Shown here: positions 5,306 to 27,663 of the stretch, in pieces
Layout of the letters: every line of letters starts with the position of its first letter
How positions within the stretch are numbered: the first letter of the stretch is position 1
Source: an uncultured archaeon
GTDB taxonomy: Archaea > Asgardarchaeota > Hermodarchaeia > Hermodarchaeales > Hermodarchaeaceae
NCBI GenBank assembly: GCA_964347045.1
Contig: CAYFXC010000026.1
Location: forward strand, 1 to 27,663
Length of the DNA stretch: 27,663 bases
Reading direction: 5' to 3'
The notes under the pieces: model-generated
The model's database searches: none
Told to the model about the DNA's origin: nothing
Seen by the model: the letters and a program-made list of their open reading frames with translations, nothing else
Translations under genes and position numbers: made by a program

Positions 5306-5704
5306 GTGGAAACTTTCACGTCGAACAAAAATCAACCAACTGCTACATTAGACACCCTTATCATTTCCACACCTCGGATGCAGGAATTAGCCCAATTTTA
5401 TCAAGACGGCCTGCAACTGGATCCACCCCATGCCCATAGTGAGAACCATCTCGGGTTCCCCCTCAAAGATGCCTATCTTAGCTTTGATTTAGTGGAAGAT
5501 ATCTCATTCGAATATCCGGGGGCTATTTCACTGTGGTTTCGCGTCGATGATCTTGAAGCCACCTTCAACCGATTCAAACAACTGGGCGCAAAGGTCAGGT
5601 ATCCTCCTACGACAAACCCCTTTGGTGATGTCCTAGCCGCGATCTTTGACCTCGATGGTAACATGTTTGGATTAGCCCAACGCAAACTCGAAGAAACCGT
5701 TTGA
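5306..5704 (+). CDS. VOC / glyoxalase-bleomycin resistance family protein
   Basis: AQFYQDGL, LWFRVDDLEATF..LGAKV..PP, FDLDGNMFGL. Confidence 0.85.
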   Translation: METFTSNKNQPTATLDTLIISTPRMQELAQFYQDGLQLDPPHAHSENHLGFPLKDAYLSFDLVEDISFEYPGAISLWFRVDDLEATFNRFKQLGAKVRYPPTTNPFGDVLAAIFDLDGNMFGLAQRKLEETV

Positions 5705-5806
5705 TAGCAAACCACGATTTTACGCTAGCCTGACCCCCTCTTTGGATTCGCCACAACGAATCGAAAAATCAAATCAATAAAAAGGACCTCTTGCCTAATA
5801 CACGGT

Positions 5807-13802: not shown

Positions 13803-13868
13803 AAAAGTGACTGTACACGACACCGCGAATCGTCTAACAATGGTGCTCCTAAAGCAAGCCATCCAAAG
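13803..13868 (-). repeat. Degenerate partial copy of the 16S-trailer repeat
   Basis: aaaagtgactgtacacgacaccgcgaatcgtctaacaatggtgctcct aligns by eye with 23803 aaaagtgatcgtccacaccagcggatcgtacaacacctgtgttgct. Confidence 0.6.
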
Positions 13869-14023
13869 TTAGTTTTTGGGTCTAACGAGTTTAAAAGAAT
13901 AATTAGAGTTTTCTCAATAATATTCCTAAATCGAAAGAATGACCAATGCCTTCTTTAACTCGCTGACGTACTTCTAGCTTTCACATTCTAGGTGTGATAC
14001 TACTCTTCAGCGGGTGAAAAGGA

Positions 14024-14848
14024 ATGAAAAAATCTCATACAATATGCCTGTTTTTACTCGGATTACTCGTTGCATTCTCTCAGACACCGATAGTCCTAAA
14101 TCAACGAGTTTCCGGATCCACCGAACAGTTTCTTGTTCCCATCGATTTGGTACCTAATTGGGATTTCGCCGACACTGAACCTGGTGGCTGGGATGGGAAT
14201 GACCATAATGTGTCTAAACCCACTTTTTGGCACTTCAGCGGAGATACTAACGGTCCTAAAGAACAATATCAGGTCATCAATGATACAGAAAACGACGGTG
14301 ACGCCGATACCCTGTTCATTCAACCTACTCGCACAAACCAAGAACATACCATTATGTTTTGGCAAGATTTCACTCCACTCGATATCAACAGCGTAACCAT
14401 CCAGTATCGGAGTTGCGCCACCGGGCCCTCCGCCGTCATTCTGCTTTATGGACTAAATGACAGTGTCACATCGGACACACCCCTCCCCAACGGCACACTT
14501 CCTTGTCTAACTTATCTCAATCCCGTCTTTAACGAAACTCCCGGTTATTGGTGCAACTACACCACAGTAACTGTCTCCCTTTCAAATCTTAGCAATTCTT
14601 ATCATCATTATCGTATTCACTGGCAAATAATCGAAGCCCCTGGAAAACCTGACGCTCAACTTTACATTGCTTACTGCCGGGTCACCGGAAATCAGATTCC
14701 ACTCCCGCCTCTCCCACCGTTCCTTTGGTCATTACCAACCATTCACGTGCTCATCATCGTAATTGCTACAATCGTGATCTTTGTCATCATGGCACTCTTC
14801 TACCTCAAGCAAGAAGGCAAACTCCATTTTCCCAAAATTGGTCAATAG
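14024..14848 (+). CDS. Secreted/surface protein with C-terminal membrane anchor, probably N-glycosylated
   Basis: Signal-like N-terminus, sequons NVS, NDT, NDS, NGT, NET, NYT and NLS, Pro-rich linker, C-terminal TM helix. Confidence 0.75.
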   Translation: MKKSHTICLFLLGLLVAFSQTPIVLNQRVSGSTEQFLVPIDLVPNWDFADTEPGGWDGNDHNVSKPTFWHFSGDTNGPKEQYQVINDTENDGDADTLFIQPTRTNQEHTIMFWQDFTPLDINSVTIQYRSCATGPSAVILLYGLNDSVTSDTPLPNGTLPCLTYLNPVFNETPGYWCNYTTVTVSLSNLSNSYHHYRIHWQIIEAPGKPDAQLYIAYCRVTGNQIPLPPLPPFLWSLPTIHVLIIVIATIVIFVIMALFYLKQEGKLHFPKIGQ

Positions 14849-14859
14849 GGCTTGGCTGG

Positions 14860-14952
14860 AAACGTAGGCGTCCATCCCCTCAGATCAAAATCCACTGCTT
14901 TTTCCAGCGCATAACATCGTTCCAAGATGTTCTGAACGACATATCAGAGAAG
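14860..14952 (-). repeat. Internally deleted copy of the 16S-trailer repeat
   Basis: aaacgtaggcgtccatcccc..agat...cac...tttccagc matches the 20405 copy. tccaagatg...agag matches the 25175 copy. Confidence 0.7.
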
Positions 14953-14969
14953 TTCAATTTAGAAATGGT

Positions 14970-15524
14970 TCAGATACGCTTTTCCTGAGCCTTTTCAGCG
15001 CGTCGCCATGGTCGAGGAATAATCAACGGCGTTGTCTTCTTGTAGACGCGGTACGCATCACCAAACCGTTTCTCCAACTTTGGCTCTTCAAGCCGTTTCA
15101 ACCACACCCAGAATAGGAAAAACGCTACCAGCGGCACAACAATGATTGCCGTGATCGACTGTACCAACCAACCAATCCCGCTGAGCAGGATTAAAAATCC
15201 CAGTATCATTGGATTTCGCGTATATCTATACAATCCCGTTGTCACCAATTCCGTTGACTGCGCGGCTTCATCTATATCCCCCCACGGGAATCCTTTCCCA
15301 GCTCGATATAACTGATACATTGACCCCAAAGATAACGTTGCGGCAATCGCAAGAGCACCTATTCCAATAATGAGATTGAATGGAAAAGGAGGGAACATTG
15401 GCAACCATAGCACGGCATCCACGACTTTTCCCACCCAAAATGTTGTCAACGGAATTACAACTAAAAATAACAAGACCACAAAGGGTATCACCCGCCTTGA
15501 TAACTTGCGTTCTCGCTGTTCCAT
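14970..15524 (-). CDS. Isoprenylcysteine carboxyl methyltransferase / PEMT-like membrane protein
   Basis: LVTTGLYRYTRNPM, EEPKLEKRFGDAYRVYKKTTP.IP. Confidence 0.9.
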   Translation of the reverse strand: MEQRERKLSRRVIPFVVLLFLVVIPLTTFWVGKVVDAVLWLPMFPPFPFNLIIGIGALAIAATLSLGSMYQLYRAGKGFPWGDIDEAAQSTELVTTGLYRYTRNPMILGFLILLSGIGWLVQSITAIIVVPLVAFFLFWVWLKRLEEPKLEKRFGDAYRVYKKTTPLIIPRPWRRAEKAQEKRI

Positions 15525-15567
15525 CTTTTATTCCTCTATCTACGCATACATTACTCAATAACGCTGA

Positions 15568-16047
15568 TTAACTTTTCATTTGTCGGCGAAAACGATAGGC
15601 GAGTCCAAATATTATCAAGGTCATGACGGTTCCAAGAATCGCTGCGATGCTAAAGTGGAGCAGCAGAATTTCACCGGCGAACAAAAAAAACCGGACAATG
15701 AAGTACATTAGAACCCAATAGATGGGGCTTGTGATGAGTCCCGGTGAAAACTTGCGTAGTGCAATACTTTGAATCAGATGCCAGAGTCCATTGGTCACAA
15801 ACATGAAGGCAAAACTCAACGGCCATATCACCCACACCCCTCTAAAGATCTCAAACATAACTATACCCGCCACAAACACCAGAAAGATCATGAGATTGAA
15901 TCCAAAGAACATCCGCCCTGAATATTCCGGGTAAAAGGTCTCCTGCATCATCTTCACAAACCCTTCTCCCACAGCCACCTCTTCAATAACATGCACACAA
16001 TAAGCCATCACGTACCCCCAAAACACAACACTCAACGATATTTCCAT
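15568..16047 (-). CDS. HXXEE domain membrane protein
   Basis: HVIEE, NGLWH, FSPGLITS. Start placed at ATG 16047; the ORF track extends to 16089. Confidence 0.8.
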   Translation of the reverse strand: MEISLSVVFWGYVMAYCVHVIEEVAVGEGFVKMMQETFYPEYSGRMFFGFNLMIFLVFVAGIVMFEIFRGVWVIWPLSFAFMFVTNGLWHLIQSIALRKFSPGLITSPIYWVLMYFIVRFFLFAGEILLLHFSIAAILGTVMTLIIFGLAYRFRRQMKS

Positions 16048-16244
16048 CAATGGACGATTCACCAAACAACACATACAGCTACCTACCAACTGCTAAAAAA
16101 GACTAGCAGTGCGCATTCATCCCATCCGTATTAGAAGAGTCCAAAGAGTGGACAAAAATCGCTATCAACTAATCATGGTTTCGAAATTTTCTCATTCAAA
16201 GTTATCTTTTGTTTCATATTTTGAAGGAAGCTTTGGAACTGCAT

Positions 16245-16279
16245 AAAAAAGAAAGAGGGGGTGCGAGTTGCACCCTTTC
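16245..16279 (-). terminator. Hairpin plus U-tract, probable terminator of the 16338 gene
   Basis: Minus strand reads GGGTGC-AACTC-GCACCC followed by CCTCTTTCTTTTTT, ~60 nt after the stop codon. Confidence 0.5.
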
Positions 16280-16337
16280 AAATACAAAATAGGGGTTTAC
16301 CGCTGTTAACTAGCAATACTAGAGCATTTTGTTCAGT

Positions 16338-17070
16338 TCAAGACTTCGCTGCTCTTAGAATCCGTCCTTGGAAGAAATAGCTGATCAGGATAAGGTACCA
16401 GCCAATTGCAAGGGCACTGACGAGCATGGTTGCTTCAGCGCTGAAGAACTCGGTGAAACCCGGAAGACCATAAAGCCACCCACCGAAGAGCATAGTCAAC
16501 CCAATGGCCCAGAGGAGGGTTCCAAGCATAAACACCCATATCCATATCACTCGGGGCGACCCTCGCATTCTATCCTGTCGCGTGTACTGAAACACAGCGT
16601 ACAGGGGAATCAGGATCATATAGAGTATGACAAGAACGAGCGCTGTCGCGAGCCAGGCTGTACCATACAGTGGAAAAGAGATAGCGAAAGCACTGACCAT
16701 CAGACCCACATAGGCGATGAACCCAATGAGGGGAAGAATCACTATCCATTTGCGTTCATTAAAGAAGTCAGGAAAGGCTAGGATAATCGCATAGAGCACG
16801 ATGAGCAATACATAAAATCCCTTCATGCCGAAGTCGACCTACCGGCCCCATAGTAGCCAATCTGACGGGGCGATTATACCCCATTTAGCTAATTGGATCG
16901 CTACCTGGGCAACCAACACACTAAGGAAAATTAAAAATCCTAAAAAGGAGAGTGTCCTACTTCTCCCAGAGCTAGCAAAGACGCCTCACAACATGAGGAC
17001 AACCAACAGGACAACTGGAATTAAACCCAGTAATCCTATACTGTGTACAAAAAGTTCAAATTGTATCCAA
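16338..17070 (-). pseudogene. Multi-pass membrane protein with two in-frame stops in its 5' third
   Basis: The frame of ORF 16338..16826 continues upstream as hydrophobic sequence (IQFELFVHSIGLLGLIPVVLLVVLML*GVF...LLWGR*VDFGMKGF), with TGA at 16986-16988 and TAG at 16839-16841. The 5' end is approximate. Confidence 0.6.
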
Positions 17071-17392
17071 AAATCCTCCGTAACCGCCCGCTACGATAGA
17101 ACTGGGACTTAAATTACTACTATAATAACAAGAATATCGGTTTCAACCAAAATTTTAGCCTAAACACAAGCAAGCACATCAACTGCTCGAGGAACACGAC
17201 AATAATCCACTCTACGAAATTACAATGCGTAAACCTCCCCTGCTTTAGTGTTGGAGCAAAGCCGAAGAAGCTCATTCCTAATTAATATTTCAAAGAATTG
17301 GTGTGACGACAAACGGCTTCAAAAGATATGTTTATTATAACTAGGTTTTGGAATAATATTCTCCAATCTAGAACTTTATGGAAGCCAGAACC

Positions 17393-18040
17393 ATGAGCTG
17401 TTGTCAACGGCAAATCCTCGAAACCACCTTCGATCAGAGCGTGGCAGAAACCGAACTCAAGCAGTATAGGGAGAAGGGAATGATTAAAACCACCCGACTT
17501 CTCGTTGACGCACTTAAAAGCCAAGGCGTGAAGGGGAAAACGCTACTCGATATTGGTGGCGGAATCGGAGTAATTCAGCACGAATTATTAAAATCTGGTT
17601 TGCGTCACAGCATTAACGCCGAAGTCTCCCAAGCGTATATTGAGGCGACGAAGCAGGAAGCCGCGCGTCAAGGGCATGAAGACCGCATTAGTCATCATCA
17701 TGGCGATTTTGTCGACCTTGCTCATACGATTTCTTCCAGCGATATTGTAACACTTGACAAAGTTATTTGTTGTTACCACGATTGGCAGAGCCTTGTGGAA
17801 CAATCCTCCTCACTTGCCCGCAACTTATATGGCATCGTAATTCCGCGGACGAATTTAATGAGTAAACTCTCCATCGGGTGGGGGAATTTCATCCTATGGA
17901 TAAGACGCCACCCATTTCGAACCCGTATCCACCCCGTCGACGCTATTGATACGATGCTTCAAGGCAAGGGCTTCAAACAACGGGTTCATCAAAAAACCTT
18001 TATCTGGCATATGATAGTCTATTCGCGCGAACCCTCATAG
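17393..18040 (+). CDS. Class I SAM-dependent methyltransferase (BchM-like)
   Basis: LLDIGGGIG, GDFVD, DIVTLDKVICCY. Start at MSCCQ (alternative start 17378). Confidence 0.85.
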   Translation: MSCCQRQILETTFDQSVAETELKQYREKGMIKTTRLLVDALKSQGVKGKTLLDIGGGIGVIQHELLKSGLRHSINAEVSQAYIEATKQEAARQGHEDRISHHHGDFVDLAHTISSSDIVTLDKVICCYHDWQSLVEQSSSLARNLYGIVIPRTNLMSKLSIGWGNFILWIRRHPFRTRIHPVDAIDTMLQGKGFKQRVHQKTFIWHMIVYSREPS

Positions 18041-18078
18041 GAAACATGTAATAACCGGTACATCTTGAACCATGAACC

Positions 18079-18654
18079 ATGAACAAACATACTCTGGGCC
18101 CGAAAGCGGTTTTGTACCCGATGCCAACGGTTCTCGTTGGAGCAAATGTTGAAGGCAAACCCAATTTTATAACAATCGCTTATTGTGGTATTCTGAGTGG
18201 GACTCCTCCAATCATTTATGTTTCCATTTATGGGACGAAGAAAAAAACGAGTCTAGGCATCACGGAAAATGGTACCTTCAGTGTCAACATTCCCTCCGTA
18301 GAGATGGTCACCATCACCGATTATGTGGGAATATACTCCGGACACACCGTGGATAAATCTACTCTCTTTGAAACCTTTTATGGACAATTGAAGACCGCTC
18401 CAATGATTACCGATTGCCCTCTTAACCTGGAATGTAAACTGATCGACGCACCCACCTACGGAACCCACACCGTCTTCATAGGGGAAATCACCGAAGTCTA
18501 TACCCAAGAGCGGTTCCTCACCGATAACACCCCTGATATCACAAAAATTAACCCAATTGTTTATGCCACTGGAACTAAAACCTACCACCAAGTCGGACAA
18601 CTCATTGCCCATGCCTTCTCTATCGGTAAACAACTGAAATCCAACATCCAATAA
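18079..18654 (+). CDS. Flavin reductase-like / flavoredoxin family protein
   Basis: YPMPTVLVGA, GTFSVNIPS, YVGIYSG, APMITDCPLNLECK, HTVFIGEI. Confidence 0.92.
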   Translation: MNKHTLGPKAVLYPMPTVLVGANVEGKPNFITIAYCGILSGTPPIIYVSIYGTKKKTSLGITENGTFSVNIPSVEMVTITDYVGIYSGHTVDKSTLFETFYGQLKTAPMITDCPLNLECKLIDAPTYGTHTVFIGEITEVYTQERFLTDNTPDITKINPIVYATGTKTYHQVGQLIAHAFSIGKQLKSNIQ

Positions 18655-18753
18655 AAGAAAATAAAACCATTATCGAACCTCAATTACGCCCTAAAGGGTA
18701 CTTCACTCAACCCCATTTATTTACCTAATCAGAAATATTACAATGAGACAATT

Positions 18754-18795
18754 TGGTCATCAGCCACAACCAGAAGACTAGCATTTGTTTTTCTC
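18754..18795 (-). repeat. Weak partial copy of the 16S-trailer repeat
   Basis: tggtcatcagccacaac...gcatttgtttttc compared with consensus tggtcgtccaccacaac...acactagtttttcc. Confidence 0.4.
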
Positions 18796-18841
18796 CTCTT
18801 GGCTTTTTTTAGATATTCTCATTCTGCTTTGGGTGTGAAGG

Positions 18842-18882
18842 AAAAAATGGAGGATAGAAATCCTCCGACGTGGAGGATTTCT
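18842..18882 (-). terminator. 11-bp inverted repeat plus U-tract downstream of the 18894 gene
   Basis: agaaatcctcc (18856-18866) pairs with ggaggatttct (18872-18882). T6 on the minus strand at 18842-18847. Confidence 0.5.
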
Positions 18883-18893
18883 CTTGTGAGGTG

Positions 18894-20288
18894 TTACCAT
18901 TCGGAAGGTGGTTCTTCCATGAAACGATCTTTACCTGATGCTTCCCAGTCGGCTTGGGCGTCTTCAATTGTATCACGGTAGGCCTTTGGTAATCGGCTGG
19001 GTAGTGTAAAACTGCTTTCTTCGTCGAGTGCGTACGAAAACATGAACGTTCGGTACGCGGTATTCAGTGGTCGGAATATGAAATAACTGGGTACGGAGGC
19101 AAAAATGCTGAAGAAGATGGCGAAGATGATACCGGCAATTAGTGCGAGGAAGAGATTTGCTAGGAGAATGATGGCGATTATATATCCGAAGAGAAACCCG
19201 ACGGCGAAGAAGCCTAGGCTAAGGAGCCCACCAAAGAAGCTGAACACGGTCGAAACACCGGTTTCGGCTATGTAGACGTCGACTAGGTATTGCCAAGTGA
19301 CACTGACGGACCGCTTGATTGAATCAATCAGTCGCTGTTTTTCAATTATAATGGCGGGAAGAGTGAAGTAGTTGATGAAACGAAAGATGGCCCCGATGAT
19401 TCGGGCGAAAATTCCACCGATTAAAGCCCATATTCCGCCCTGTCGAGCGCTTCCTTGGCGAATGGCACTCTGACCGACTGCCACTGCCGTGCGTAGAGCG
19501 GCGAATTGAATAATCGTTCCTAATACTTGTCGGACTTCTCGGACCCCACCACGTAGTACTGGATCTTCTTCTCGAAACCAAGTGTGTGCGATGGAGATGT
19601 TAATGCCTTCAAAGATATAGAAGGCTGAGAAGTAAATGAAAAGATATGGGATTTGGATTAGGATGCTTAGGATGAAGAAAATCCAGGAATCAGATGGAAT
19701 CCCGATTAAGGGTAGCCATGTGTACATGGCGCCATAGGTTGCCATCATGAGAATGCCGGTCAGCAGGCTGAACACCGCAGTAACCAAGGGAATTATGAAC
19801 ATCTCTTTTTCTTCAAGCAGCAGTTGTGCTGTGAATTCAACCAGTTTGCCAGCGCGCTCGATTTTTTGTCGACGTCGGAACCAGACCCATAACTGAATTA
19901 TTCCAATGAAAGGAAAAATCAACCCAAAAATCCCAATGGGTCCTAAGAAGATGAGAAGAACGATTCCAATCGCGATCATAAATACCGCTTGGAGTATCCA
20001 GAGAACGCGTAATGTTCCTGCAGCTGCGCGTTTCATTAATTGTAGAATGATATACGCGAGCCCTAACCCCAAGACAATAAGGATTATGATGAAGGCTAGT
20101 CCAGCCCACCAGAAACCTGCGAGCCATGGGACTGCCAGGTTAATGAAATCGATGATAATCGGTAAAAAGGGAGAAACCAAGAAGAGCAGATTGTAAAAGC
20201 CAAAACTGTACAACAAAATAATTCCTATCGCTAACAGAACGATTGGGCCCACTGGCCCACGATCTGTCACCTCTTCTCTAGGCGTCAT
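18894..20288 (-). CDS. Polytopic membrane protein, DUF6159 / choline-transporter-like resemblance
   Basis: About 10 TM segments, with EEKEMFIIP, DPVLRGG and YFTLPAIIIEKQRLIDSIKRS. Start placed at ATG 20288; the ORF track extends to 20342. Confidence 0.65.
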   Translation of the reverse strand: MTPREEVTDRGPVGPIVLLAIGIILLYSFGFYNLLFLVSPFLPIIIDFINLAVPWLAGFWWAGLAFIIILIVLGLGLAYIILQLMKRAAAGTLRVLWILQAVFMIAIGIVLLIFLGPIGIFGLIFPFIGIIQLWVWFRRRQKIERAGKLVEFTAQLLLEEKEMFIIPLVTAVFSLLTGILMMATYGAMYTWLPLIGIPSDSWIFFILSILIQIPYLFIYFSAFYIFEGINISIAHTWFREEDPVLRGGVREVRQVLGTIIQFAALRTAVAVGQSAIRQGSARQGGIWALIGGIFARIIGAIFRFINYFTLPAIIIEKQRLIDSIKRSVSVTWQYLVDVYIAETGVSTVFSFFGGLLSLGFFAVGFLFGYIIAIILLANLFLALIAGIIFAIFFSIFASVPSYFIFRPLNTAYRTFMFSYALDEESSFTLPSRLPKAYRDTIEDAQADWEASGKDRFMEEPPSEW

Positions 20289-20404
20289 AGCGGCTATTAT
20301 CCCCTTAAAGCAAGAAAAAACCTTTGCTTTCCCTGTCACCAATTTAAACTAGATTCGCCCGCAACTGTAAATTTCGACTAGTCGGGAACAAGTCCAATAA
20401 CAGG

Positions 20405-20527
20405 AAAAGTAGCCGTCCACCCCACTAGATTGTTACAACACCCATGTTTCCAGTAGATTCCACTCAAATTCCTTACCGCACATAAGTCTCCAACTATTTC
20501 CTTTTGAGGTATTTTCGAGGTAATGAA
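20405..20527 (-). repeat. Copy of the 16S-trailer repeat
   Basis: cgtccacccca, caacacc..tgtttcc and an exact tccttaccgcaca are shared with 26900-27035. Confidence 0.85.
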
Positions 20528-20558
20528 CTGTTCAGTGCCGTTCAATTTACTTTAGAAA

Positions 20559-22079
20559 TTAAATCTTCTCCCATACACCCAAGGTTTCACAAATCGCTTT
20601 GCCCGCTAAAAATCCAGAAGCTTGACATGGACCGTAGCCATGCCCTGGTCGTGTCCACTGTCCCGCGAGCCACAAGTTTGTAATAGGCGTCTTCTGATCG
20701 GGTCGAAGAGGGCCGATCTGATCTGGTGTCGCATCATAGCCATACGCTGTACCCCACTCAGTCCAAAGATATCGCTCAAACGTTCGGGGGGTTGAGGTTT
20801 CCACGTGCTCCAGACGTTCTCCCAATCTGAGTCCCATTTTCTTTTGTACAAAGTGTAGAATTTGATCTGTGGTTTGTTGTTTCATTTGTTTATATTGTGG
20901 TGTATTTCGTGTCGGCCAACGGTTGATGGAGTCGAGAAGTGTTACTACCACATTACTTTTTCCGGAAGGGGCAAACCATTGGCTTCCAAGTTTTGTATAA
21001 TTGGTAATTAGAAATCCCGCCGCTTCGGGTTGTCCCTTATTAATGCTGTTCTGCAGGGTGGCTGCTGAAATCTTCCCTGGATACCAAAGCTGTTCATAGT
21101 CTGGTAGGTAGTCACTGAGATCTCCATCAACGCCTAAAAAGAGTGAAGTAAAGCTTATGGTGCCTTTCAATTGAGCTAATTTCTCCCCATACTCCATGAT
21201 ATTCGTGGATGGATTACCTTGAAGCCTCTCCCGAAAGAGTGGACCCGCTGAACCATTCCACACGAAATAACGTGCCCGAACCTGTTCTCCGTCGCTGAGC
21301 ACCACATGCTGTGCTTGATTCTGATCAATGTGCACGCCTTCGACGGGAGTTTTCACCCGAATCTCGGCCCCTGCTTCTGCAAGCCGCTTCGCATAGGCCT
21401 GAGCCAGTGATTGAGACCCTTCATGGAGTTGCCAACCGCCACCTTGAAGGTAGGACCTAAAGCCAATCGCAAAGTTGATAACGCTTTGAGTATCGGGGCC
21501 TTGTCCCAGCCAATTCCACGCGCCACTTACCGCAAGTTTTGCCCCCTCATGCTCCTTAAAGAAATAATCCAGGGCTTCTTGAAGGGTTTTCATCCCCCAG
21601 TCCGTGAGAAATCGAAATGAACCTTTCACGGGTGGGGCATATCCCATCAAACTCATAATTTCTTGCTGGAGCGTCTCGACAAACTCAAACCACGCTCGAA
21701 TATTCGCTTTGGCTTTCGGAAACGCCTCCACCAACGCATTCTCCGCCGCCTCCCAATTTAAAGGCATACGAAAATCTAGCTGATCCCCCCCTGGAACCTT
21801 CTCTACTTGCACTCGATACCAGTCCTTGAGCTGAATGGGTCGAATCAGAGGTAACAGCTCAAAAAACTGCAGAATCTGGCTGTCCTCTGCCCGCCCATTA
21901 ATTGCATGCAGCGACACCTCAAAGTTATACCCTTTCCGCTTAAAACTCGACGCACACCCACCCACTTTGTGATGCTGTTCAAATAGCACCACATCTAATC
22001 CGTGCTTCGCACAGGTCAAAGCCGCCGCCAAACCACCTAGCCCACCACCCACCACGAGAACATCACGAACTGTGCTCAT
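20559..22079 (-). CDS. FAD-dependent oxidoreductase, phytoene dehydrogenase / retinol saturase-like
   Basis: VVGGGLGGL..A, EQHHKVGGC, GSQSLAQA, STPRTFERY...GTAYG, NLWLAGQWTRPGHG. Confidence 0.9.
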   Translation of the reverse strand: MSTVRDVLVVGGGLGGLAAALTCAKHGLDVVLFEQHHKVGGCASSFKRKGYNFEVSLHAINGRAEDSQILQFFELLPLIRPIQLKDWYRVQVEKVPGGDQLDFRMPLNWEAAENALVEAFPKAKANIRAWFEFVETLQQEIMSLMGYAPPVKGSFRFLTDWGMKTLQEALDYFFKEHEGAKLAVSGAWNWLGQGPDTQSVINFAIGFRSYLQGGGWQLHEGSQSLAQAYAKRLAEAGAEIRVKTPVEGVHIDQNQAQHVVLSDGEQVRARYFVWNGSAGPLFRERLQGNPSTNIMEYGEKLAQLKGTISFTSLFLGVDGDLSDYLPDYEQLWYPGKISAATLQNSINKGQPEAAGFLITNYTKLGSQWFAPSGKSNVVVTLLDSINRWPTRNTPQYKQMKQQTTDQILHFVQKKMGLRLGERLEHVETSTPRTFERYLWTEWGTAYGYDATPDQIGPLRPDQKTPITNLWLAGQWTRPGHGYGPCQASGFLAGKAICETLGVWEKI

Positions 22080-22151
22080 TCAATCCACCTTAGCACTCCT
22101 CAACCACATCCCCTTCTATTTATGATTTTATTATCCACAACTCAACCCAAA

Positions 22152-22282
22152 GAAAAAATAGCTGTTCACCACAACTGGCGTATACAACACTAGTTTTTCC
22201 AGCATCATACATCCAGACACCTCACTAGACAAAGAGCCTTGCAAGGTTTCCCTACTAGGTACCTTAGAAGAAATGGGTTTCT
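22152..22282 (-). repeat. Copy of the 16S-trailer repeat
   Basis: A-tract, caacac, tttccagcatcatacatccagac and caaggt...taccttagaagaaatg are collinear with 26900-27035. Confidence 0.85.
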
Positions 22283-22363
22283 GACGCAACATCCTTAACG
22301 AAATTGTATTGCTGCAGTTGCAGGATCCTCGCCGACCTCAGGGCATTTTTAAGCTTCACTTAA

Positions 22364-22711
22364 TTAGCCCGCTTGCTCCACCGCCACTAAGATCCCCGCG
22401 ACGAATATTAACACCCCACCAACAAGATACGACCCAATAGCCGCAATCACACCGAAAATAATGAAGTATAGAGCCGTAGCCTGCCGATCTTGGTCCATCC
22501 TCGGCACACAATAAAACAGAACGATGAACCCAAAAACCACCGCCATAATTGCCAAGGAAAACCACAGAACCGTTTCAGCTGCAATACCATGCTGCCCACC
22601 AAACTCCTCATACATCACAAGACCATTCAATACCCCCGCAAGAATTCCTAAAATGATGGTCACAATTGAACCCGCTTTCGCCAAGATGTTCGCCGTATCA
22701 ATTAATGCCAT
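22364..22711 (-). CDS. Small hypothetical membrane protein (~4 TM)
   Basis: Hydrophobic ORF ending GGVLIFVAGIL. Start placed at ATG 22711; the ORF track gives 22741. Confidence 0.7.
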   Translation of the reverse strand: MALIDTANILAKAGSIVTIILGILAGVLNGLVMYEEFGGQHGIAAETVLWFSLAIMAVVFGFIVLFYCVPRMDQDRQATALYFIIFGVIAAIGSYLVGGVLIFVAGILVAVEQAG

Positions 22712-22831
22712 ACTAAATTCCACCAATTCACTCAAAATCAATAATCACTTTAGATTCAATCAGTCGGTGTAGATAAAACTTCTTCAACTTAAAACAACGC
22801 CTTAAAAAACTGCGAAATAATTAGATGCCAC

Positions 22832-22900
22832 AAAGTAGGTCTCCCCTACCAACACGAGCAAATAATTTTCGATGTAATTACATAATACATATTGGACTGC
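22832..22900 (-). repeat. Possible highly decayed copy of the 16S-trailer repeat
   Basis: aaagtaggtctcccc followed ~46 nt later by cataatacat. The consensus has catcataca at ~45 nt. Confidence 0.3.
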
Positions 22901-22976
22901 AAGTGTAGTCTATTCCTTGGAGGGCGGCACTTCACTGACCCACGCTATTTGAAGTGGATGTATTCGGAGGAAAACC

Positions 22977-23759
22977 TTGATGAACGTAAAAGCTAGAAAG
23001 AAAGAACCCGGACAAGATTCCATGTACCTTGATGGCCGATTTTATGACCTTGTCATACACAGTCAACAAAACACGGATCTGGGTATTGCGTTTTACCTTG
23101 AACACGCGAGGAAGTATGGCGACCCCGTGCTAGATCTCGCCTGCGGCACAGGACGCGTAACAATTCCGTTAGCTGAAGCTGACCTTGATGTGGTCGGTCT
23201 TGACATCTCTGAACCCATGTTAGACCAGGCGCGGGAGAAGGCCAAGCGTAAAGCTATCCCACTTGAATTAATCCAAGGCGATATGACGAATTTCACACTG
23301 AACCGCAAGTTCAACCTCATTATTCTAGCAGGCAATACCATTGCCCACCTCGAAACCGTTGATCGCTTTGAGCGCTGTCTATCCTCGGTCCAACAACATC
23401 TGACTAAGAAAGGCCGCTTCATCTTTGGCGTCTTCAACCCGGACCTAGAATATCTAACACGAGACCCCGCAACGCGATTTCCCGTCACCGAGTTTACCGA
23501 CCCCGATACCAACGAAAAGGTCATTGTCACCGAAACCACAACCTACGATAAGGCCCACCAACAGTATCGAATCCGACGCTATCATCGCATAGGCCAACAC
23601 GAAACCTCTTGGGATTTCACCTTCAAGATATACTTCCCCCAAGAACTTGACGCCCTCCTCAAATACAACGGCTTCATCATCGAAGCCAAATATGGTAACT
23701 ACGACCAAACTTCCTTCACATCTGACTCCCGATTTCAAATTCTTATATGTCACACATAG
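22977..23759 (+). CDS. Class I SAM-dependent methyltransferase
   Basis: VLDLACGTGR, GLDISEPML, GDMTNF, YFPQELDALL. GGAGG SD at 22966. Confidence 0.92.
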   Translation: MMNVKARKKEPGQDSMYLDGRFYDLVIHSQQNTDLGIAFYLEHARKYGDPVLDLACGTGRVTIPLAEADLDVVGLDISEPMLDQAREKAKRKAIPLELIQGDMTNFTLNRKFNLIILAGNTIAHLETVDRFERCLSSVQQHLTKKGRFIFGVFNPDLEYLTRDPATRFPVTEFTDPDTNEKVIVTETTTYDKAHQQYRIRRYHRIGQHETSWDFTFKIYFPQELDALLKYNGFIIEAKYGNYDQTSFTSDSRFQILICHT

Positions 23760-23800
23760 GAGAATCCCACGCATTTTTGCCCATTAACAACACCTATGGC

Positions 23801-23933
23801 AAAAAAGTGATCGTCCACACCAGCGGATCGTACAACACCTGTGTTGCTGACATCATACACCCGCTCTGATACTAGAAATAAGTCTTTCAAGGTATCCCCA
23901 CGGGACACCTCAAAGCAAATGCTTCCTTAAGGA
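23801..23933 (-). repeat. Copy of the 16S-trailer repeat
   Basis: aaaaaagtgatcgtccac, caacacctgtgtt, catcatacaccc, aagtctttcaaggtatcc...gggacacct, aaatg. Confidence 0.9.
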
Positions 23934-24038
23934 ATATCGAACTGGTTTTTGTAATTATGACGTGATAGATAATTTGTCTCAAATTAGCGATAGTTTCTGG
24001 AGCTCATAATTGTAGCAGAATTTGAGAAGATTGAAATA

Positions 24039-24659
24039 TTGACAGGGGCTATATCCTCTTTGAGAGGCTCATTGATGGCTTCAAGTGCCGATTTGATGAT
24101 GGGAGTGGTCAGATTGTATAATCAAATTCGTTCACTAATTGGACTTCAAATAGATCCATCCAACTTTCCTCGATGGATCTTTGACGCCCTTGTTTGGGGA
24201 TGCCTAGTGTTACTCATTGAAGGCCTCCTCATTGGAGTGGTGCTTCTGATTCAAGGACGCCGCATTCGCAGCCAAGCCGAGGACGCCGGCGTTGAAGCCC
24301 CCCTCCCCCAAAGTTCACGGCAGTTTAAGCCCTTTGGCATTGATGAAGCCTATTGGTTCATCGCCGGCATCATTCTTGCCGCCATCGTTTGGGTTACTGC
24401 GCCCCTCATCCGCATCACATTCACCGAGACACAAATCGTTGCCACTGTGTTCTTGATTCTTGCCGGCGTAGCTTGGTTCTCTGCGTTCTACGGGATCATC
24501 TACATTCTCCGCGAATACCCCAAACGACAACGGCTGCTACACGAAGCCATTCACCACAAAGCCATCAAACGCCCATCACCCCCTCAGTGCTCAACCTGCG
24601 GAACTCCATTACAAGAAGATGAACACTTCTGTAGCCAATGCGGAACCAGCACAAAATAA
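24039..24659 (+). CDS. Membrane protein with C-terminal zinc ribbon
   Basis: Three TM segments followed by CSTCG...FCSQCG. The start is uncertain. Confidence 0.75.
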   Translation: MTGAISSLRGSLMASSADLMMGVVRLYNQIRSLIGLQIDPSNFPRWIFDALVWGCLVLLIEGLLIGVVLLIQGRRIRSQAEDAGVEAPLPQSSRQFKPFGIDEAYWFIAGIILAAIVWVTAPLIRITFTETQIVATVFLILAGVAWFSAFYGIIYILREYPKRQRLLHEAIHHKAIKRPSPPQCSTCGTPLQEDEHFCSQCGTSTK

Positions 24660-24716
24660 ACCTAAAGCCCCCTCTTCCTTACCTTACAAAGCCAAGCATA
24701 CTATTCATCTCAACAA

Positions 24717-24830
24717 CAAAACGTGGTCGTCCACCCCGGCAAGGGTACAACACCCGTGTTCCATTGAGACTCCTATCAGTGAGACGCTGTTCGGCAGTAC
24801 CCTCGACAACGGTACGTAGAAATAATAGGA
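24717..24830 (-). repeat. Copy of the 16S-trailer repeat
   Basis: tggtcgtccacccc (14 nt) and caacacccgtgtt (13 nt) are identical to the 16S-adjacent copy. agactcct and a residual gtacc/ggtac stem are also present. Confidence 0.88.
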
Positions 24831-24873
24831 ACCACCAATTTTTACCCACGGTTTCATTGTGGGAGGTGATCCA

Positions 24874-25101
24874 ATGGCAAGAGCATACCGCATTCTCCTC
24901 GCAATCCTCGCCGTCGTAAACCTCGTACTCGTCACCCTGAATGTCGTCATTCCCCTCGTCGCCTTTCCCATCGTAGGCACCCCAACCCCCACTCAAGCCA
25001 TCCTCATCTACATCTACTTGGGTACCTTCACCTGGCCCATACTCACCGGCCTCATTCTCCTCCTCGACATCTTCAAACCCGGCGGCGGCGCCACCGGATG
25101 A
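24874..25101 (+). CDS. Small two-TM hypothetical protein (75 aa)
   Basis: ATG 24874 directly after GGAGGTGATCCA. Two hydrophobic helices. Confidence 0.65.
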   Translation: MARAYRILLAILAVVNLVLVTLNVVIPLVAFPIVGTPTPTQAILIYIYLGTFTWPILTGLILLLDIFKPGGGATG

Positions 25102-25174
25102 TAAGACGGCGGCAGCACCACCAAACAATCACTTGATCGAACAAAGAGAATTGACAAAACCCATTCAAGAATCT

Positions 25175-25298
25175 AAAAAAGTGGTCGTCCCCCGCAACGG
25201 CTCGTCTGCAACACCGGTGTTTCCAGCGCCTACACCTGCTCCCATTGCCTACACCACTCCAAGATGCCCCGGAGGGCACCTTAGAGGAAATGATTTCC
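25175..25298 (-). repeat. Copy of the 16S-trailer repeat
   Basis: aaaaaagtggtcgtcc, caacaccggtgtttcc, tccaag...acctt, aaatgatttc. Confidence 0.9.
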
Positions 25299-25387
25299 AG
25301 ATATCTCGATAGGACCTTTGAGATACCGGTAATAATTAAAATCTTGAGCAGTGAAGAGGATGAAAATCAATACTTGGAGGCATTCCA

Positions 25388-26053
25388 TTGATTCTCGAAA
25401 TGACATTAGCGGGGTTTCTCTTTCTGTTCATTTTGGCTCTAAACCTTGTAATGAGCGCTTTGGGCTATAAAATCGAACTAGGTGACGTTGACACCGACGC
25501 GATGCTGCAAACGGTTAACACCCATCCAACGCGATTCAAAACGAGTATCGTGTTCGCGCTGATCGAACATGTGAGCATCATTGTCCTGGCGGTCCTGCTG
25601 TTTCGTGTATTTGGTCCCTATAGCCTACTACTGGGCATTGTATGGACCACCTTTCGAATCGGCGAAGGCCTGATCCAAAGCTATAACGAAATCAACTACT
25701 GGGATCTTCTCAACATCGCCAAACAATACTCCGCTACGAGTGATGCAGAACAAACCGCGCTCAGTGCTTCAGCTCAGACTCTTCTTCAAACCAAACACAC
25801 CCGATTCACCATCGCCATGGTCTTCTGGTCTATCGGCACCCTCGCTTACTCCATTCTCTTTATCATCTACGGACTGGTCCCACCACTCATTGGCTGGTTA
25901 GGCATCTTTGCCAGCCTCACCTCAGGCATCGGTAACGGCATAAGACTCATCAAACCCAACTTCCAACTCCTATCCGCCATAGGAGGCCTCTCAGCCATTC
26001 TCTTCGAAATCCTCATCGGCGGATGGCTCATCTACTATTCCCTCATTATCTAG
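25388..26053 (+). CDS. DUF4386-like membrane protein
   Basis: Hydrophobic 221 aa with LAVLLFRVF, FRIGEG, LVPPLIGWLG, FEILIGGWLI. GGAGG SD. Confidence 0.8.
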   Translation: MILEMTLAGFLFLFILALNLVMSALGYKIELGDVDTDAMLQTVNTHPTRFKTSIVFALIEHVSIIVLAVLLFRVFGPYSLLLGIVWTTFRIGEGLIQSYNEINYWDLLNIAKQYSATSDAEQTALSASAQTLLQTKHTRFTIAMVFWSIGTLAYSILFIIYGLVPPLIGWLGIFASLTSGIGNGIRLIKPNFQLLSAIGGLSAILFEILIGGWLIYYSLII

Positions 26054-26209
26054 CGAACATCGCAGAAATGATTGAGACGAAGAAGAGAAGGAGAAGAAGA
26101 CATGGCATTGTAACAAATACCCACCATCACTTCGCTAATCCATGATACCCTAACAAACGCCAACGAGCATATCCACTCCGAAGACAGCTTAAAGACTGTA
26201 GACACGACC

Positions 26210-26464
26210 TTAGGTCCGGCGCTTTACGTCCCGGTCATACTTTTCCCAGTGGTCTTTGTAGTCGGGCTTTTCCTTTGCTAACTCCTCTAACACACGCATC
26301 CGAATCACTAAGCTCTCTAAAGATTCAGCAGGATCTGCTTCAATATCGCTAGCGATTCGCCGTGAAAGGTCGATGGGTGCTCCAGCCTTCAGGCACGAAA
26401 CAACTATCTTTTCTTTGGTGAACGGCTCGGTCTCCCCAGACCGCTTCACCACACTCTTAACCAT
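26210..26464 (-). CDS. Stand-alone ATP-cone domain protein
   Basis: MVKSVVKRSGETEPFTKEKIVVSCLKAGA...IRMRVLEEL...WEKY. ATG 26464 with AGGTGG upstream. Confidence 0.88.
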   Translation of the reverse strand: MVKSVVKRSGETEPFTKEKIVVSCLKAGAPIDLSRRIASDIEADPAESLESLVIRMRVLEELAKEKPDYKDHWEKYDRDVKRRT

Positions 26465-26583
26465 AGTCCCACCTGATAATACTACTTTACACCGTGCTTT
26501 TTCCCTCTTTCCATCAAAAAAGGTCAAATCACCGCATCAAAAGAAATACCGGTTAGGAAGCGCACTATACACACTTCTTCAGA

Positions 26584-26718
26584 CTACCTAAGAAACCCGC
26601 CACACATCGGGCACCGATCATCGTTCACTACTCCACACTCACGACAAACGTAAATCCCACACCCCAAACAGACCACATCAGTACGCTTATGCTGACAGAC
26701 CGAACACAACTCCATCAT
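26584..26718 (-). CDS. 44-aa protein with four CxxC motifs (RING/C4C4-like zinc finger), absent from the ORF track
   Basis: MMELCSVCQHKRTDVVCLGCGIYVCRECGVVNDDRCPMCGGFLR*, with GGTGGAG upstream. Confidence 0.8.
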   Translation of the reverse strand: MMELCSVCQHKRTDVVCLGCGIYVCRECGVVNDDRCPMCGGFLR

Positions 26719-26899
26719 CAATCTCCACCCATAAACCGGAACCACCAAATACTGTAAACAAAAGCCTGGATAAAAACATCTTGATTAGCGATAACCACTC
26801 AAACCCGGACTCCATATCATCCCAAAAAGGCTTCCCTAAACCCATTTACCAAACCCCAAGCACTAAAACAATGGTACCAAAAATTGGAACACGAAATAA

Positions 26900-27035
26900 G
26901 AAAAAGAAAAATGGTCGTCCACCCCAAAAGCATGGGTCAACACCCGTGTTTCCGGCATCATACACCCAGACTCCTTACCGCACAAAGTCTTCCAAGGTAT
27001 CCACAGCGGGATACCTTCGAAGAAAATGATTTCTT
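26900..27035 (-). repeat. 16S rRNA 3' trailer (hairpins plus terminal U-tract); reference copy of the dispersed repeat
   Basis: Abuts the 16S 3' end. The minus strand forms AAGAAA/UUUCUU, AAGGUAUCC/GGAUACCUU and AGACUUU/GGAGUCU stems and ends in UUUUUCUUUUUC. Confidence 0.85.
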
Positions 27036-27056
27036 AGGAGGTGATCCAGCCGCAGG

Positions 27057-27088
27057 GTAAGGAAGTCAGAGAACGTATCTCCAACCTT
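27057..27088 (-). other. 32-nt BHB-type intron after the A1519 equivalent (h45 loop)
   Basis: Removal restores GGGGAA|CCUGCGGC. GGGG/CCUU central helix, AA|A and AC|C bulges, 10-bp intron stem. Confidence 0.8.
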
Positions 27089-27094
27089 TTCCCC

Positions 27095-27153
27095 TTACCG
27101 CAAGGGCCCGCTCGCAAGCGGGATTTGATCAGTCCAACCGTAGCTAGACTGGT
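27095..27153 (-). other. 59-nt BHB-type intron after the A1513 equivalent (h45 5' strand)
   Basis: Removal restores GCCGUA|GGGGAA. GCCG/CGGU central helix, UA|A and AA|G junctions, two internal hairpins. The boundary is ambiguous by 1 nt. Confidence 0.78.
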
Positions 27154-27184
<31 letters not shown>

Positions 27185-27280
27185 TGCCGAGCCCCGATTC
27201 GACACCACCCACCCATCCGCCGAAGCGGGCAGGTGGACAGCGGCTCATCCAAACTTGACTCGGGTGGAGCGACGGGCGGT

Positions 27281-27343
<63 letters not shown>

Positions 27344-27663
27344 CTGGTGTTGACAGGCGATTACTAGGCATTCCATGTTCACGACGGCGGGTTGCAGCCG
27401 TCGATCCCGACTGTGCCCGGGGTTGTGAGATTGGCTTCCCCTTTCGGGGTTGCGGCCCATTGTCCCGGGCTTTGCAGCCCGCGTGTGGCCCGGGGGTTTC
27501 GGGGCATACTGACCTGCCGTGGCCCCCGCCTTCCTCTGCTTTCTCAGCAGCGGTCCCCTTAGTGTGCCCGGCTACCCCGAAGGGTATCGCTGGCAACTAA
27601 GGGTGGGGGTCTCGTTCGTTGCCTCACTTAAGAGGACAGCTCACGCCACGAACTGGCGACGGC

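Follow-up and report, generated by a model that had tools for sequence, protein, structure and literature searches.

Copies of the 16S rRNA trailer punctuate a hypervariable gene-cassette array across a genus of Hermodarchaeota

Why does the tail of a 16S rRNA gene recur between unrelated genes, and how are the genes between the copies gathered? The question is raised by a stretch of 27,663 nucleotides from an uncultured member of the Hermodarchaeaceae (the window), which comprises an entire contig and whose right end lies inside a 16S rRNA gene with small insertions at approximately 27058-27123 and 27268-27300. The mature 3' end of that gene was placed at position 27036, where the minus strand reads GGATCACCTCCT, and the first repeat copy begins exactly there. 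A first-pass annotation had listed near full-length, intergenic copies of the trailer in one orientation (at 26900, 25175, 24717, 23801, 22152 and 20405), and both nhmmer and a covariance model (CM R1) recovered all six as strong full-length copies between genes on the minus strand, which is the strand of the 16S gene (E-values from 1e-20 to 1e-35; 86-133 bits). The left 13.7 kb, described there as free of copies, indeed yielded none. The features of the window are collected in Table 1.

Table 1. Repeat copies, 16S anchor and cargo genes in the window
Feature	Position	Strand	Remarks
Archaeal 16S rRNA gene, 3' part (anchor)	27036..27663	-	cut by contig end; Rfam RF01959, 330 bits
Repeat copy 1, native 16S 3' trailer	26898-27038	-	CM R1 132.7 bits; 88-90% identity to native trailer of G008
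ATP-cone protein, 105 aa	26210..26527	-	Pfam
DUF4386 protein (fam14)	25388..26053	+	fam14 also in G007 array, other position
Repeat copy 2, type-B middle	25168-25303	-	CM 99 bits
Small membrane-protein ORF	24869..25101	+	perfect Shine-Dalgarno sequence
Repeat copy 3, middle partly deleted	24710-24839	-	CM 86.4 bits
206-aa protein, C-terminal zinc ribbon	24039..24659	+	
Repeat copy 4	23794-23932	-	CM 118.1 bits
SAM-dependent methyltransferase	22977..23759	+	
125-aa protein (fam8)	22364..22741	-	cassette also in G006 and G013
Repeat copy 5	22145-22286	-	CM 116.6 bits
FAD amine oxidase-like protein (fam13)	20559..22079	-	G007: fam13 and downstream repeat, different neighbours
Repeat copy 6, co-inherited with fam13	20396-20536	-	CM 114.6 bits; inside blastn tract 22143 to 20404 against L027
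Older array part, repeats worn down	14024..20342	.	genes cassette-borne in sister species; Pfam, family maps
Choline-transporter-like	18894-20342	-	older array part
Possible worn repeat core	18743..18793	-	intergenic; nhmmer E 0.5-1.2, not significant
Flavin reductase	18079-18654	+	older array part
Methyltransferase (fam0)	17378-18040	+	older array part
fam7	16338-16826	-	older array part
HXXEE protein (fam1)	15568-16089	-	older array part
PEMT/ICMT protein (fam12)	14970-15524	-	older array part
Probable worn repeat, 3' core only	14858..14966	-	marginal: nhmmer 14858-14911, E 0.03 within window; CM 13.5 bits
fam6	14024-14848	+	older array part

The repeat unit measures about 135 nt and consists of the last bases of the 16S gene together with the 3' trailer. 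The trailer runs from a covarying hairpin (P2) through a middle part to box A (AACACNGGTGTTG), a variable loop, box B (GGGGTGGACGACCA) and a T-run; in copy 1 the middle is of type A, and boxes A and B lie at 26938-26950 and 26912-26923, respectively, again between hairpin P2 and a T-run. In the array copies 13 of the 14 pairs of P2 show compensatory changes. The inner parts of the boxes, GGTGT and ACGACC, make up an imperfect inverted repeat in which one base is bulged, and the spacer between them varies in both length and sequence. The non-native copies retain as many as 12 nt from the 3' end of mature 16S (GGATCACCTCCT, CACCTCCT or only CCT), and the repeats therefore derive from the 16S end and its trailer. 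To this extent the earlier proposal of a recurrent capture site at the 16S 3' end is supported in part. The weaker copies of the first-pass annotation fared less well: the one at 14860 is marginal and the one at 13803 is detected by no profile, and the weak match at 18754 lies between genes on the right strand but is not significant, whereas that at 22832 is likewise missed by all profiles. By eye, a compact remnant resembling boxes A and B can be seen at 22832.

Pairwise identity among the copies is about 55-75%, and those of this genome are nearer to copies of other species than to one another; copy 2 is closest to the native trailer of G006 and not to that of its own genome (identity table). 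In the rest of the 2.58-Mb genome only two further copies were found, both at the start of contig C19 (64-201 and 1083-1220). A scattered MITE or REP element is ruled out, since the exact conserved boxes occur nowhere else in the genome. Across the relatives, copies cluster only downstream of 16S, as had been anticipated: the covariance model identified same-orientation arrays in 12 of the genus's 14 genomes, whereas 46 genomes from elsewhere gave none. In every case where the 16S gene is assembled, the first copy adjoins it, as in the window, in two sister genomes (G008:C48 and G006:C71) and on four public contigs (L040, L041, L042 and L053). A chimeric contig built from the 16S flanks of several strains had been a concern, given that the genome is metagenome-assembled in 83 contigs, that rRNA flanks are hard to assemble and that one fork adjoins the C19 copies. 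We regard such an artefact as extremely improbable: the same architecture recurs in 12 other genomes and on contigs obtained independently from ENA, JGI, NCBI and Logan, and the copies within the contig, at only 55-70% identity, differ too much for an assembler to confuse them.

The cassettes between the repeats are shuffled among the species. Ten gene families (fam0, 1, 3, 4, 6, 7, 8, 11, 13 and 14) recur across sister species in differing order, e.g. fam34-fam0-fam3...fam4 in G008 versus fam4-fam3...fam34...fam0 in G013; the family maps bear out the predicted variation in content and order. Each family keeps a fixed orientation relative to the repeat. The ATP-cone cassette, with 330 nt of non-coding DNA between the gene and copy 1, has a homologous stretch in G007 and matches L027 at 84-88% (blastn). 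Homology breaks at the repeats, and specifically between box A and box B. For fam4, compared in three genomes, homology ends exactly after GTGTTG with a common box B variant upstream, and the fam11 copies, which are 94% identical, break at the same place. The co-travelling unit is not the trailer with its downstream gene, as first proposed, but box B and the T-run of the upstream repeat, one to three genes in either orientation, and the next repeat up to box A, from which it follows that exchange takes place between the two boxes. The crossover is not always located there, because the entire downstream repeat of fam15 is co-inherited; fam13 likewise carries its downstream repeat.

Such a layout recalls integrons, and a strictly integron-like system would have a site-specific recombinase, or a housekeeping Xer-like enzyme, act on the box A/box B core, excising and inserting circular cassettes made of a box B tail, a gene and the repeat up to box A. 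The likeness is genuine as regards layout: every one of the small cassettes, mostly of 1-3 genes, ends in a single structured site of the same orientation, the cargo is accessory and its content and order vary among relatives, and the junctions cluster at the imperfect inverted repeat with its bulged base. On one strand G-U/G-T pairs outnumber A-C pairs (265 versus 41), the strand-biased folding expected of a site that folds as a single strand. Archaeal attC clusters, mostly of the kind without an integrase (CALINs), are moreover reported to be enriched in Asgard genomes (Ghaly et al. 2022, PMC9668308). The parts, however, do not match. Neither a tyrosine nor a serine recombinase is encoded in the window, no IntI was found for the array, and a search of 13 genomes from the genus returned no serine recombinase; just one tyrosine recombinase is widespread, a 315-aa Xer-like gene that occurs phylum-wide and never near the arrays, and the others are sporadic. 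No attC architecture was found, in line with the first-pass annotation: RYYYAAC/GTTRRRY ends are missing from the repeat, which does not form one single hairpin. A spacer of variable length and sequence is expected to suit simple tyrosine-recombinase strand exchange poorly, and the integron-like scheme leaves unexplained why, upstream of its crossover, every site has 90 nt of trailer together with the 16S end. Unlike integrons, the array begins at an rRNA gene and not at attI, its genes lie in either orientation and exchange falls between two internal boxes. We consider this explanation unlikely.

A further feature not predicted by an integron-like system is a polar enrichment of G+T that each repeat opens on its own strand and that dies away within about 600 nt. 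GC skew declines from +0.37 to +0.05 across 0-700 nt after the repeats, and third-codon-position skew at the start is +0.50 for sense and +0.62 for antisense genes, i.e. the gradient is independent of gene direction. It agrees with exposure of single-stranded DNA beginning at each repeat, and its source could also be transcription initiating at, or reading through, each repeat. The latter option leads to the view of the repeats as chiefly functional RNA elements, transcribed from each copy as a small RNA resembling the trailer, a terminator or a processing module, with the cassette-border position and the skew as by-products of transcription. Covariation and G-U bias suit an RNA on the 16S strand, the gradient on the non-template strand suits read-through, each copy ends in a T-run, which is an archaeal terminator signal, and the G006 trailer is colinearly complementary to its own 16S leader, like a processing stem. 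That complementarity is statistically weak (z about -2), though, and no Rfam family matches the repeat. As the sequences upstream of the copies are unrelated, any shared promoter must lie inside the unit. Neither the joint movement of a gene and its downstream copy nor the retained 16S bases would be explained, and we judge this view quite improbable.

No orphan recombinase of the kind suggested earlier is co-distributed with the arrays; the gene that goes with them is nuclease-like instead. In sister species the first slot behind the native trailer holds fam35, an antisense gene encoding a PD-(D/E)xK nuclease-like protein of 419 aa. A repeat lies on either side of it in all 7 distinct contexts, and it directly follows the native trailer in all four lineages whose sequence reaches 16S. 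The first-slot copies share only 44-78% amino-acid identity among these lineages, with invariant residues E239, P275-D276, E294-x-K296 and Q313. In the AF2 model (pLDDT 82) the C-terminal domain resembles the nuclease domains of MspJI, AspBHI, AF1548, LlaBIII and FokI, middling matches with Z of 5.5-7.3, below 8. The window lacks fam35, and the genome holds no intact copy but a 36-codon remnant behind the second copy on C19; its array may therefore be frozen. Such a decayed first-slot gene, lying behind the repeat copy that is the most distal of those assembled, fits the idea that older units are pushed outward. In the actin array of the same genome the first slot is occupied by an antisense gene with two LAGLIDADG-like motifs (identified by motifs only); the first-slot nuclease types of the two arrays, LAGLIDADG-like and PD-(D/E)xK-like, are unrelated.

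It might be argued that no dedicated machinery is needed: the 16S gene and the repeated trailers would be homology anchors for ordinary homologous recombination, the array the product of old tandem integrations, and fam35 an unrelated resident or selfish gene. The low identity among copies does look old, a large array exists here in a genome without fam35, and the crossovers fall at the longest conserved stretches, where homology-dependent exchange is expected anyway. Against this, fam35 has stayed in its place, after the native trailer and before the following copy, while diverging to 44% identity, and its catalytic residues are invariant; the actin array holds an unrelated nuclease type in the same slot. 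Hairpin P2 is maintained by compensatory changes, and the strong gradient begins anew at each copy, which points to a process directed at the repeats. This explanation, too, is doubtful.

The reading that we favour, with a probability of roughly 0.45, is nuclease-started, homology-guided copying akin to that of the yeast WHO elements rather than to an integron. The array would be built and shuffled by DNA copying initiated at a break or nick: fam35, as a site-specific PD-(D/E)xK nuclease, would cut or nick trailer copies, and the upstream end, terminating in box A, would prime synthesis on another array of the same or a related cell. Copying would then take in box B, the gene or genes and the next repeat, and the event would end with re-annealing at the conserved box that follows. 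As in WHO homing, a gene's 3' end would be replaced and the old ends pushed outward, and the outcome would be integron-like because unrelated cargo genes ride along. Counting against nuclease-started copying, most cassettes contain neither a nuclease gene nor a remnant of one, which sets them apart from WHO clusters; the four native trailers that were compared follow 16S in two clades, and so give no sign of frequent trailer replacement. Moreover, the exact place of a junction within the invariant boxes is not resolvable, and the same pattern would hence be left by a site-specific recombinase that acts at these boxes.

Among known systems, tandem islands at tRNA or tmRNA 3' ends (e.g. at ssrA of Dehalococcoides) also have direct repeats of an RNA-gene 3' end dividing successive downstream insertions. 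Those islands measure kilobases to tens of kilobases, many with their own integrase, and their repeat is short, about 20 nt, whereas in the 16S array the units measure 0.4-2 kb, the entire 135-nt trailer serves as the repeat and an integrase was not found. The WHO elements lie at FBA1 in Torulaspora and Lachancea yeasts (Coughlan et al. 2020, PMC7282813). Both systems have a site-specific nuclease gene (putative in the archaeal case) directly behind a conserved host gene, co-oriented 3' fragments of that gene that stack downstream and act as repair homology, and older units that move outward and decay, for which the fam35 remnant on C19 is an example. The 16S array differs in its archaeal host, in its target, a non-coding rRNA end and trailer, and in its nuclease, PD-(D/E)xK-like and not of the intein-type LAGLIDADG class. 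Its units are mostly unrelated cargo instead of nuclease genes and pseudogenes, cassette order differs between species, and chimeric evolution was not detected among the four native trailers. We found no published description of such a 16S-trailer cassette array in the literature.

In the Hermodarchaeota of this genus, then, the row of accessory genes downstream of 16S changes fast, and its genes are each closed by an old copy of the rRNA tail. Because sister species carry the gene for a DNA-cutting enzyme in the first slot, the array looks like an undescribed, nuclease-linked route for gathering and shuffling genes.

The bin that holds the window (genome G000) comprises 2.58 Mb in 83 contigs and is 89% complete, and the window is its complete 27.7-kb contig C26. 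The right end is occupied by the 3' portion of a minus-strand archaeal 16S rRNA gene, whose mature end GGATCACCTCCT finishes at 27036. Using an HMM and a covariance model of the repeat (R1), six full-length copies of a unit made up of the 16S 3' end and the 3' trailer were located in the window, all six intergenic and all on the minus strand.

Full-length copies of the 16S trailer repeat in the window
Feature	Position	Strand	Remark
Repeat copy, full-length	26898-27038	minus	Directly abuts 16S; HMM + R1
Repeat copy, full-length	25168-25303	minus	HMM + R1
Repeat copy, full-length	24710-24839	minus	HMM + R1
Repeat copy, full-length	23794-23932	minus	HMM + R1
Repeat copy, full-length	22145-22286	minus	HMM + R1
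Repeat copy, full-length	20396-20536	minus	HMM + R1

The first-pass annotation had listed weaker copies as well, which were scanned for with nhmmer profiles built from a 48-copy alignment. The one at 14860 was recovered marginally (E 0.03), the one at 18754 was not significant, and those at 13803 and 22832 were missed by every profile. The sequence GGATCACCTCC at 24872 was considered as a second 16S end and rejected, as it is the reverse of the Shine-Dalgarno sequence of a plus-strand ORF (24869-25101). A 77-aa membrane-protein ORF has as its ribosome-binding site a perfect 11-nt anti-16S match (GGAGGTGATCC, within 24859-24880), which is unusually long for a Shine-Dalgarno sequence. A search of G000 with RF01959 and RF02540 returned no rRNA despite the 16S fragment in the window, and this result was set aside. 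The 16S fragment itself carries an insertion of ~60 nt just before the 3' end (27058-27123), common to genome G008 and missing from G006 and the public contig L042, as well as a second, smaller insertion in the 1390 region (about 27268-27300). In G006 the 16S gene (L038 619-4212) spans 3.6 kb and contains internal ORFs of 157-211 aa; taken together, these features indicate that the 16S of the genus is intron-rich.

Two further copies were found in a genome-wide scan of G000, at the start of contig C19. Profile searches gave no copies in the genome beyond the window and C19, and the exact conserved boxes are absent elsewhere. The eight copies thus occupy two contig regions in a single orientation, which disposes of the dispersed MITE/REP-like element against which the first-pass annotation had asked its array to be checked. 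Weak matches were seen at C55:1546-1582 (3' core, E 0.003 genome-wide) and C21:14253-14313 (5' half, E 0.11); these contigs are joined in the assembly graph, and the matches may mark a worn second array. In the same graph (L001 1-90) the end of contig C44 has two alternative continuations, C2 and C19, which have 86 nt in common and then split exactly at the hairpin start of the first C19 copy. This fork may reflect variation between strains or a junction of a second type.

R1 detected 2-11 copies per genome in 12 of the 14 genomes of the genus, and none in the 46 genomes outside it, four of the sister genus and 42 from elsewhere in the phylum. In the genus the copies of an array all share one orientation and often lie at contig ends. 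Wherever a 16S end was assembled it is directly abutted by the first copy, in the window, in G008 (contig C48), in G006 (contig C71) and in the public contigs L040, L041, L042 and L053. Since this abutment recurs in independent public contigs, an assembly artefact is ruled out.

All seven of these loci have the first copy directly at the mature 16S 3' end. The copies in general start at the 16S end, retaining 3 to 12 of its final nucleotides. Read on the 16S strand, the 5' start consists of the last 16S bases (CCT, up to the complete mature end in some copies), followed by a short A/T-rich stretch and a 14-bp hairpin, P2, which shows compensatory changes at 13 of its 14 pairs (48 copies, 13 genomes). 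The middle part occurs as type A (GGAGACTTATGTGCGGTAAGGAGTCTGGG) or type B (GGAGTGGAGTGGGCAATGGGAGCGGG). The 3' domain contains, in order, box A (AACACNGGTGTTG), a variable loop of 10-17 nt, box B (GGGGTGGACGACCA) and a T-run, such that the ends of the unit read CCTAAGAA... and ...GACGACCA plus the T-run, and P2 and the 3' domain are separate. In the helices, G-U pairs outnumber A-C mismatches by 265 to 41, a ratio that overstates the case, given the G+T richness of this strand and the fitting of the alignment to the model; the excess points to the 16S-sense strand as the one that folds, as RNA or as single-stranded DNA. In G006, the sole genome with a complete 16S and leader and hence the one in which leader pairing was examined, trailer and 5' leader show colinear, antiparallel, weak complementarity (z about -2; 10-13 of 300 shuffles). 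Its resemblance to a processing stem is suggestive only.

ORFs were called in 20 array loci and clustered into families. The arrays vary throughout the genus: fam0 (methyltransferase), fam1 (HXXEE), fam3, fam4 (methyltransferase-CdhD-ferredoxin), fam6, fam7, fam8, fam11 (ferredoxin), fam13 (FAD amine oxidase) and fam14 (DUF4386) recur between species in other orders and with other neighbours. G008, for instance, has the order fam34, fam0, fam3 ... fam4, whereas G013 has fam4, fam3 ... fam34 ... fam0. The orientation relative to the repeat is constant for each family. The cargo is accessory in nature, consisting of methyltransferases, oxidoreductases and proteins of the membrane and surface, together with a small GTPase and an OLD-TOPRIM gene that looks defence-like; the distal flanks are ordinary core operons, common to species pairwise. 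In L040, a G006-like metagenome contig, the cassettes near the 16S include a defence-like OLD-TOPRIM/AAA_21 gene (5007-6566) and a uracil-DNA glycosylase gene (1385-2077). The left 13.7 kb of the window was not counted as array; fam5, at 453-1898, lies there reversed relative to the repeats, though it is cassette-borne in G014 and G012.

The limits of the exchanged unit could be read from cargo shared between species. The window and G007 share homology around fam13 from right behind the T-run of the upstream repeat through the entire downstream repeat, and for fam15 the whole downstream repeat was likewise carried along. The three pairwise comparisons of fam4 (G003, G008 and G013) all stop exactly after the GTGTTG of box A, and the upstream box B moves along with the gene, in a derived variant shared by G003 and G008. 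The same break is seen in copies of fam11 that are 94% identical. From these breaks it follows that box B with the T-run, the gene or genes, and the next repeat up to box A are inherited together. Junctions can be placed between GTGTTG, which is invariant, and box B, the invariant bases permitting no finer placing; in most cases exchange lies between the two boxes. The copies in G000 resemble those of other species more than one another; copy 2 is of type B, as is the native trailer (the copy abutting 16S) of G006, and the native trailer of G000 is of type A. Plain homologous recombination between such copies, with no dedicated enzyme, is one possible explanation.

A site-specific recombinase acting between box A and box B is another possibility. 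Serine recombinases (PF00239) gave zero matches in the genus. The matches to PF00589 comprise one widespread Xer-like gene of 315 aa, which is also present in other families of the phylum, and sporadic others; genus-wide, none lies near an array. G000 has a second, non-Xer tyrosine recombinase of 350 aa at a contig end (C9:121378-122266), and sporadic integrases at contig ends, with no array link seen, occur also in G011, G006, G001 and G008.

In these searches no IntI-type tyrosine recombinase was found beside the array or in the genome. Clusters of attC sites without integrase (CALINs) lack IntI by definition, and a missing IntI is thus compatible with a CALIN. As in integrons and CALINs, a cassette consists of one or more genes plus one site, the sites are co-oriented, and cassettes are reshuffled among relatives. 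However, attC is one imperfect hairpin of 55-141 nt with core sites RYYYAAC ... GTTRRRY, which the two-domain repeat does not match. The integron crossover falls between G and TT of the R' core site; the array junctions, placed as far as the interval from the invariant GTGTTG to box B, may or may not correspond to it. Judged on its sequence and predicted folding, the repeat is outside the definition of attC. The integrase-less Asgard 'integrons' of Ghaly et al. 2022 (PMC9668308) may overlap such arrays. A full-text literature search found no published account of archaeal cassette arrays anchored at an rRNA gene; the mobile elements in the aloposon and Atabeyarchaeia papers are of other kinds.

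One gene family is linked to the anchor itself. In G008 and G006, fam35 (P0001; 419 aa) occupies the interval from the native trailer to the next copy, in antisense orientation, and every homologue in public contigs is likewise placed between two repeats, giving seven distinct contexts in all. It sits directly behind the native trailer in all four lineages that reach the 16S (G008, G006/L040, L042 and L053), with an amino-acid identity of only 44-78% among them. The window lacks fam35, and G000 keeps only its last 36 codons behind the second C19 copy (C19:1244-1351), as expected of an old unit that was pushed outward and decayed. Distant relatives (P0015, P0017 and P0018) are found in unrelated small operons, on short contigs without an annotated 16S.

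The protein has no Pfam match, and its family comprises 8 representative clusters at E ≤ 1e-3 among 1.84 billion proteins. Across 12 homologues E239, P275-D276, E294-C-K296 and Q313 are invariant (motif E ... PD ... ExK ... Q), and alignment and model secondary structure place this motif on the alpha-beta-beta-beta-alpha-beta core of PD-(D/E)xK nucleases. The model built with the 12 homologues reached a pLDDT of 82 (34 for the single-sequence fold). Its residues 229-416 match the nuclease domains of MspJI (Z 7.3), AspBHI (6.9), AF1548 (6.6), LlaBIII (6.3) and FokI (5.5), and the McrC cleavage domain within the same range (Z 5.5-7.3), all middling scores; the best Foldseek match is MspJI (E 4e-4). 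A beta-barrel domain is predicted in front of the cleavage domain. Recognition domains with a separate PD-(D/E)xK cleavage domain, as the model has them, are the layout of enzymes that cut away from their site, and if fam35 cuts in this way, the variable loop that separates the two conserved boxes would be a suitable place for the cut.

The arrays also carry a polar footprint in strand composition. Pooled over 54 repeats from 20 array loci of G000 and 12 sister genomes, all read in repeat sense, the first 100 nt behind a repeat show a GC skew of +0.37 and a TA skew of +0.21; the two values have dropped to about +0.05 by 600-800 nt and are near zero immediately ahead of the next repeat. The result is a sawtooth, in which G+T enrichment on the repeat-sense strand resets behind each repeat and fades in about 600 nt. 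At third codon positions the GC skew starts at +0.50 in repeat-sense genes and at +0.62 in antisense genes, and this common sign in both gene directions shows that the effect is not a coding effect. Genes in the 14-27 kb part of the window share the sign of the skew whichever way they point, and the 20-25 kb region ranks in the top four of 477 genome windows for skew. Such a gradient would be expected from C to T loss on the repeat-sense strand, if this strand were repeatedly single-stranded from each repeat in the direction away from 16S. It is consistent with DNA synthesis or strand displacement that is primed at the repeat, or with transcription reading through from each repeat. Resection starting at a break in that repeat does not fit, as the strand exposed downstream would then be the opposite one.

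The strongest GC skew in G000 is found on contig C30, where an actin gene forms the anchor of a second array (C30:2930-5250; L044 1474-3818). Its first slot, the interval directly behind the anchor gene, is occupied by an antisense gene of 377 aa with two LAGLIDADG-like motifs (LITDGGAG and LAMSTEGS) and no Pfam match.

Among known systems, the logic of the array is closest to that of the WHO elements, the 3'-end-replacing homing elements of yeast (PMC7282813). In both, an endonuclease-type gene lies directly downstream of the target (here fam35 behind the native trailer, in the sister genomes and not in the window), and co-oriented fragments of the target's 3' end share a common start point, here the 16S end. 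WHO clusters, however, consist of nuclease genes and pseudogenes, whereas the array holds cargo genes with one nuclease remnant seen, and its cassette order is shuffled, unlike that of WHO clusters. The four native trailers compared form two clades, and their 16S 3' regions group identically; the discordance between trailer and 16S that the chimeric evolution of WHO elements predicts was not seen in these four taxa, a sample too small for a verdict.

By this analogy the fam35 nuclease would cut or nick trailer copies, and repair by copying from another array would move the cassettes. We propose, tentatively and with a probability of roughly 0.35, a class of Asgard gene-capture platform without integrase. 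Copies of a conserved host gene's 3' end (the 16S trailer and, elsewhere, actin) would serve as recombination sites, and a dedicated first-slot nuclease would start polar, homology-guided copying at every copy, leaving a measurable single-strand deamination scar and moving accessory genes between species.

The arrays break assemblies beside the 16S gene, and may thereby bias genome bins. What they offer for testing is an array with an rRNA anchor, an exchange site made of two boxes, a candidate nuclease family and a polar mutational footprint visible in sequence alone. No closer relatives of eukaryotes than the Asgard archaea are known, and the ways in which these archaea gain and reshuffle accessory genes, on which the arrays bear, are poorly understood. 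If the nuclease drives the array, the yeast WHO/HO logic would have a counterpart among prokaryotes, one that has assumed an integron-like, gene-collecting role, and this could account for some of the integrase-less 'integrons' that have been reported as Asgard-enriched (PMC9668308).
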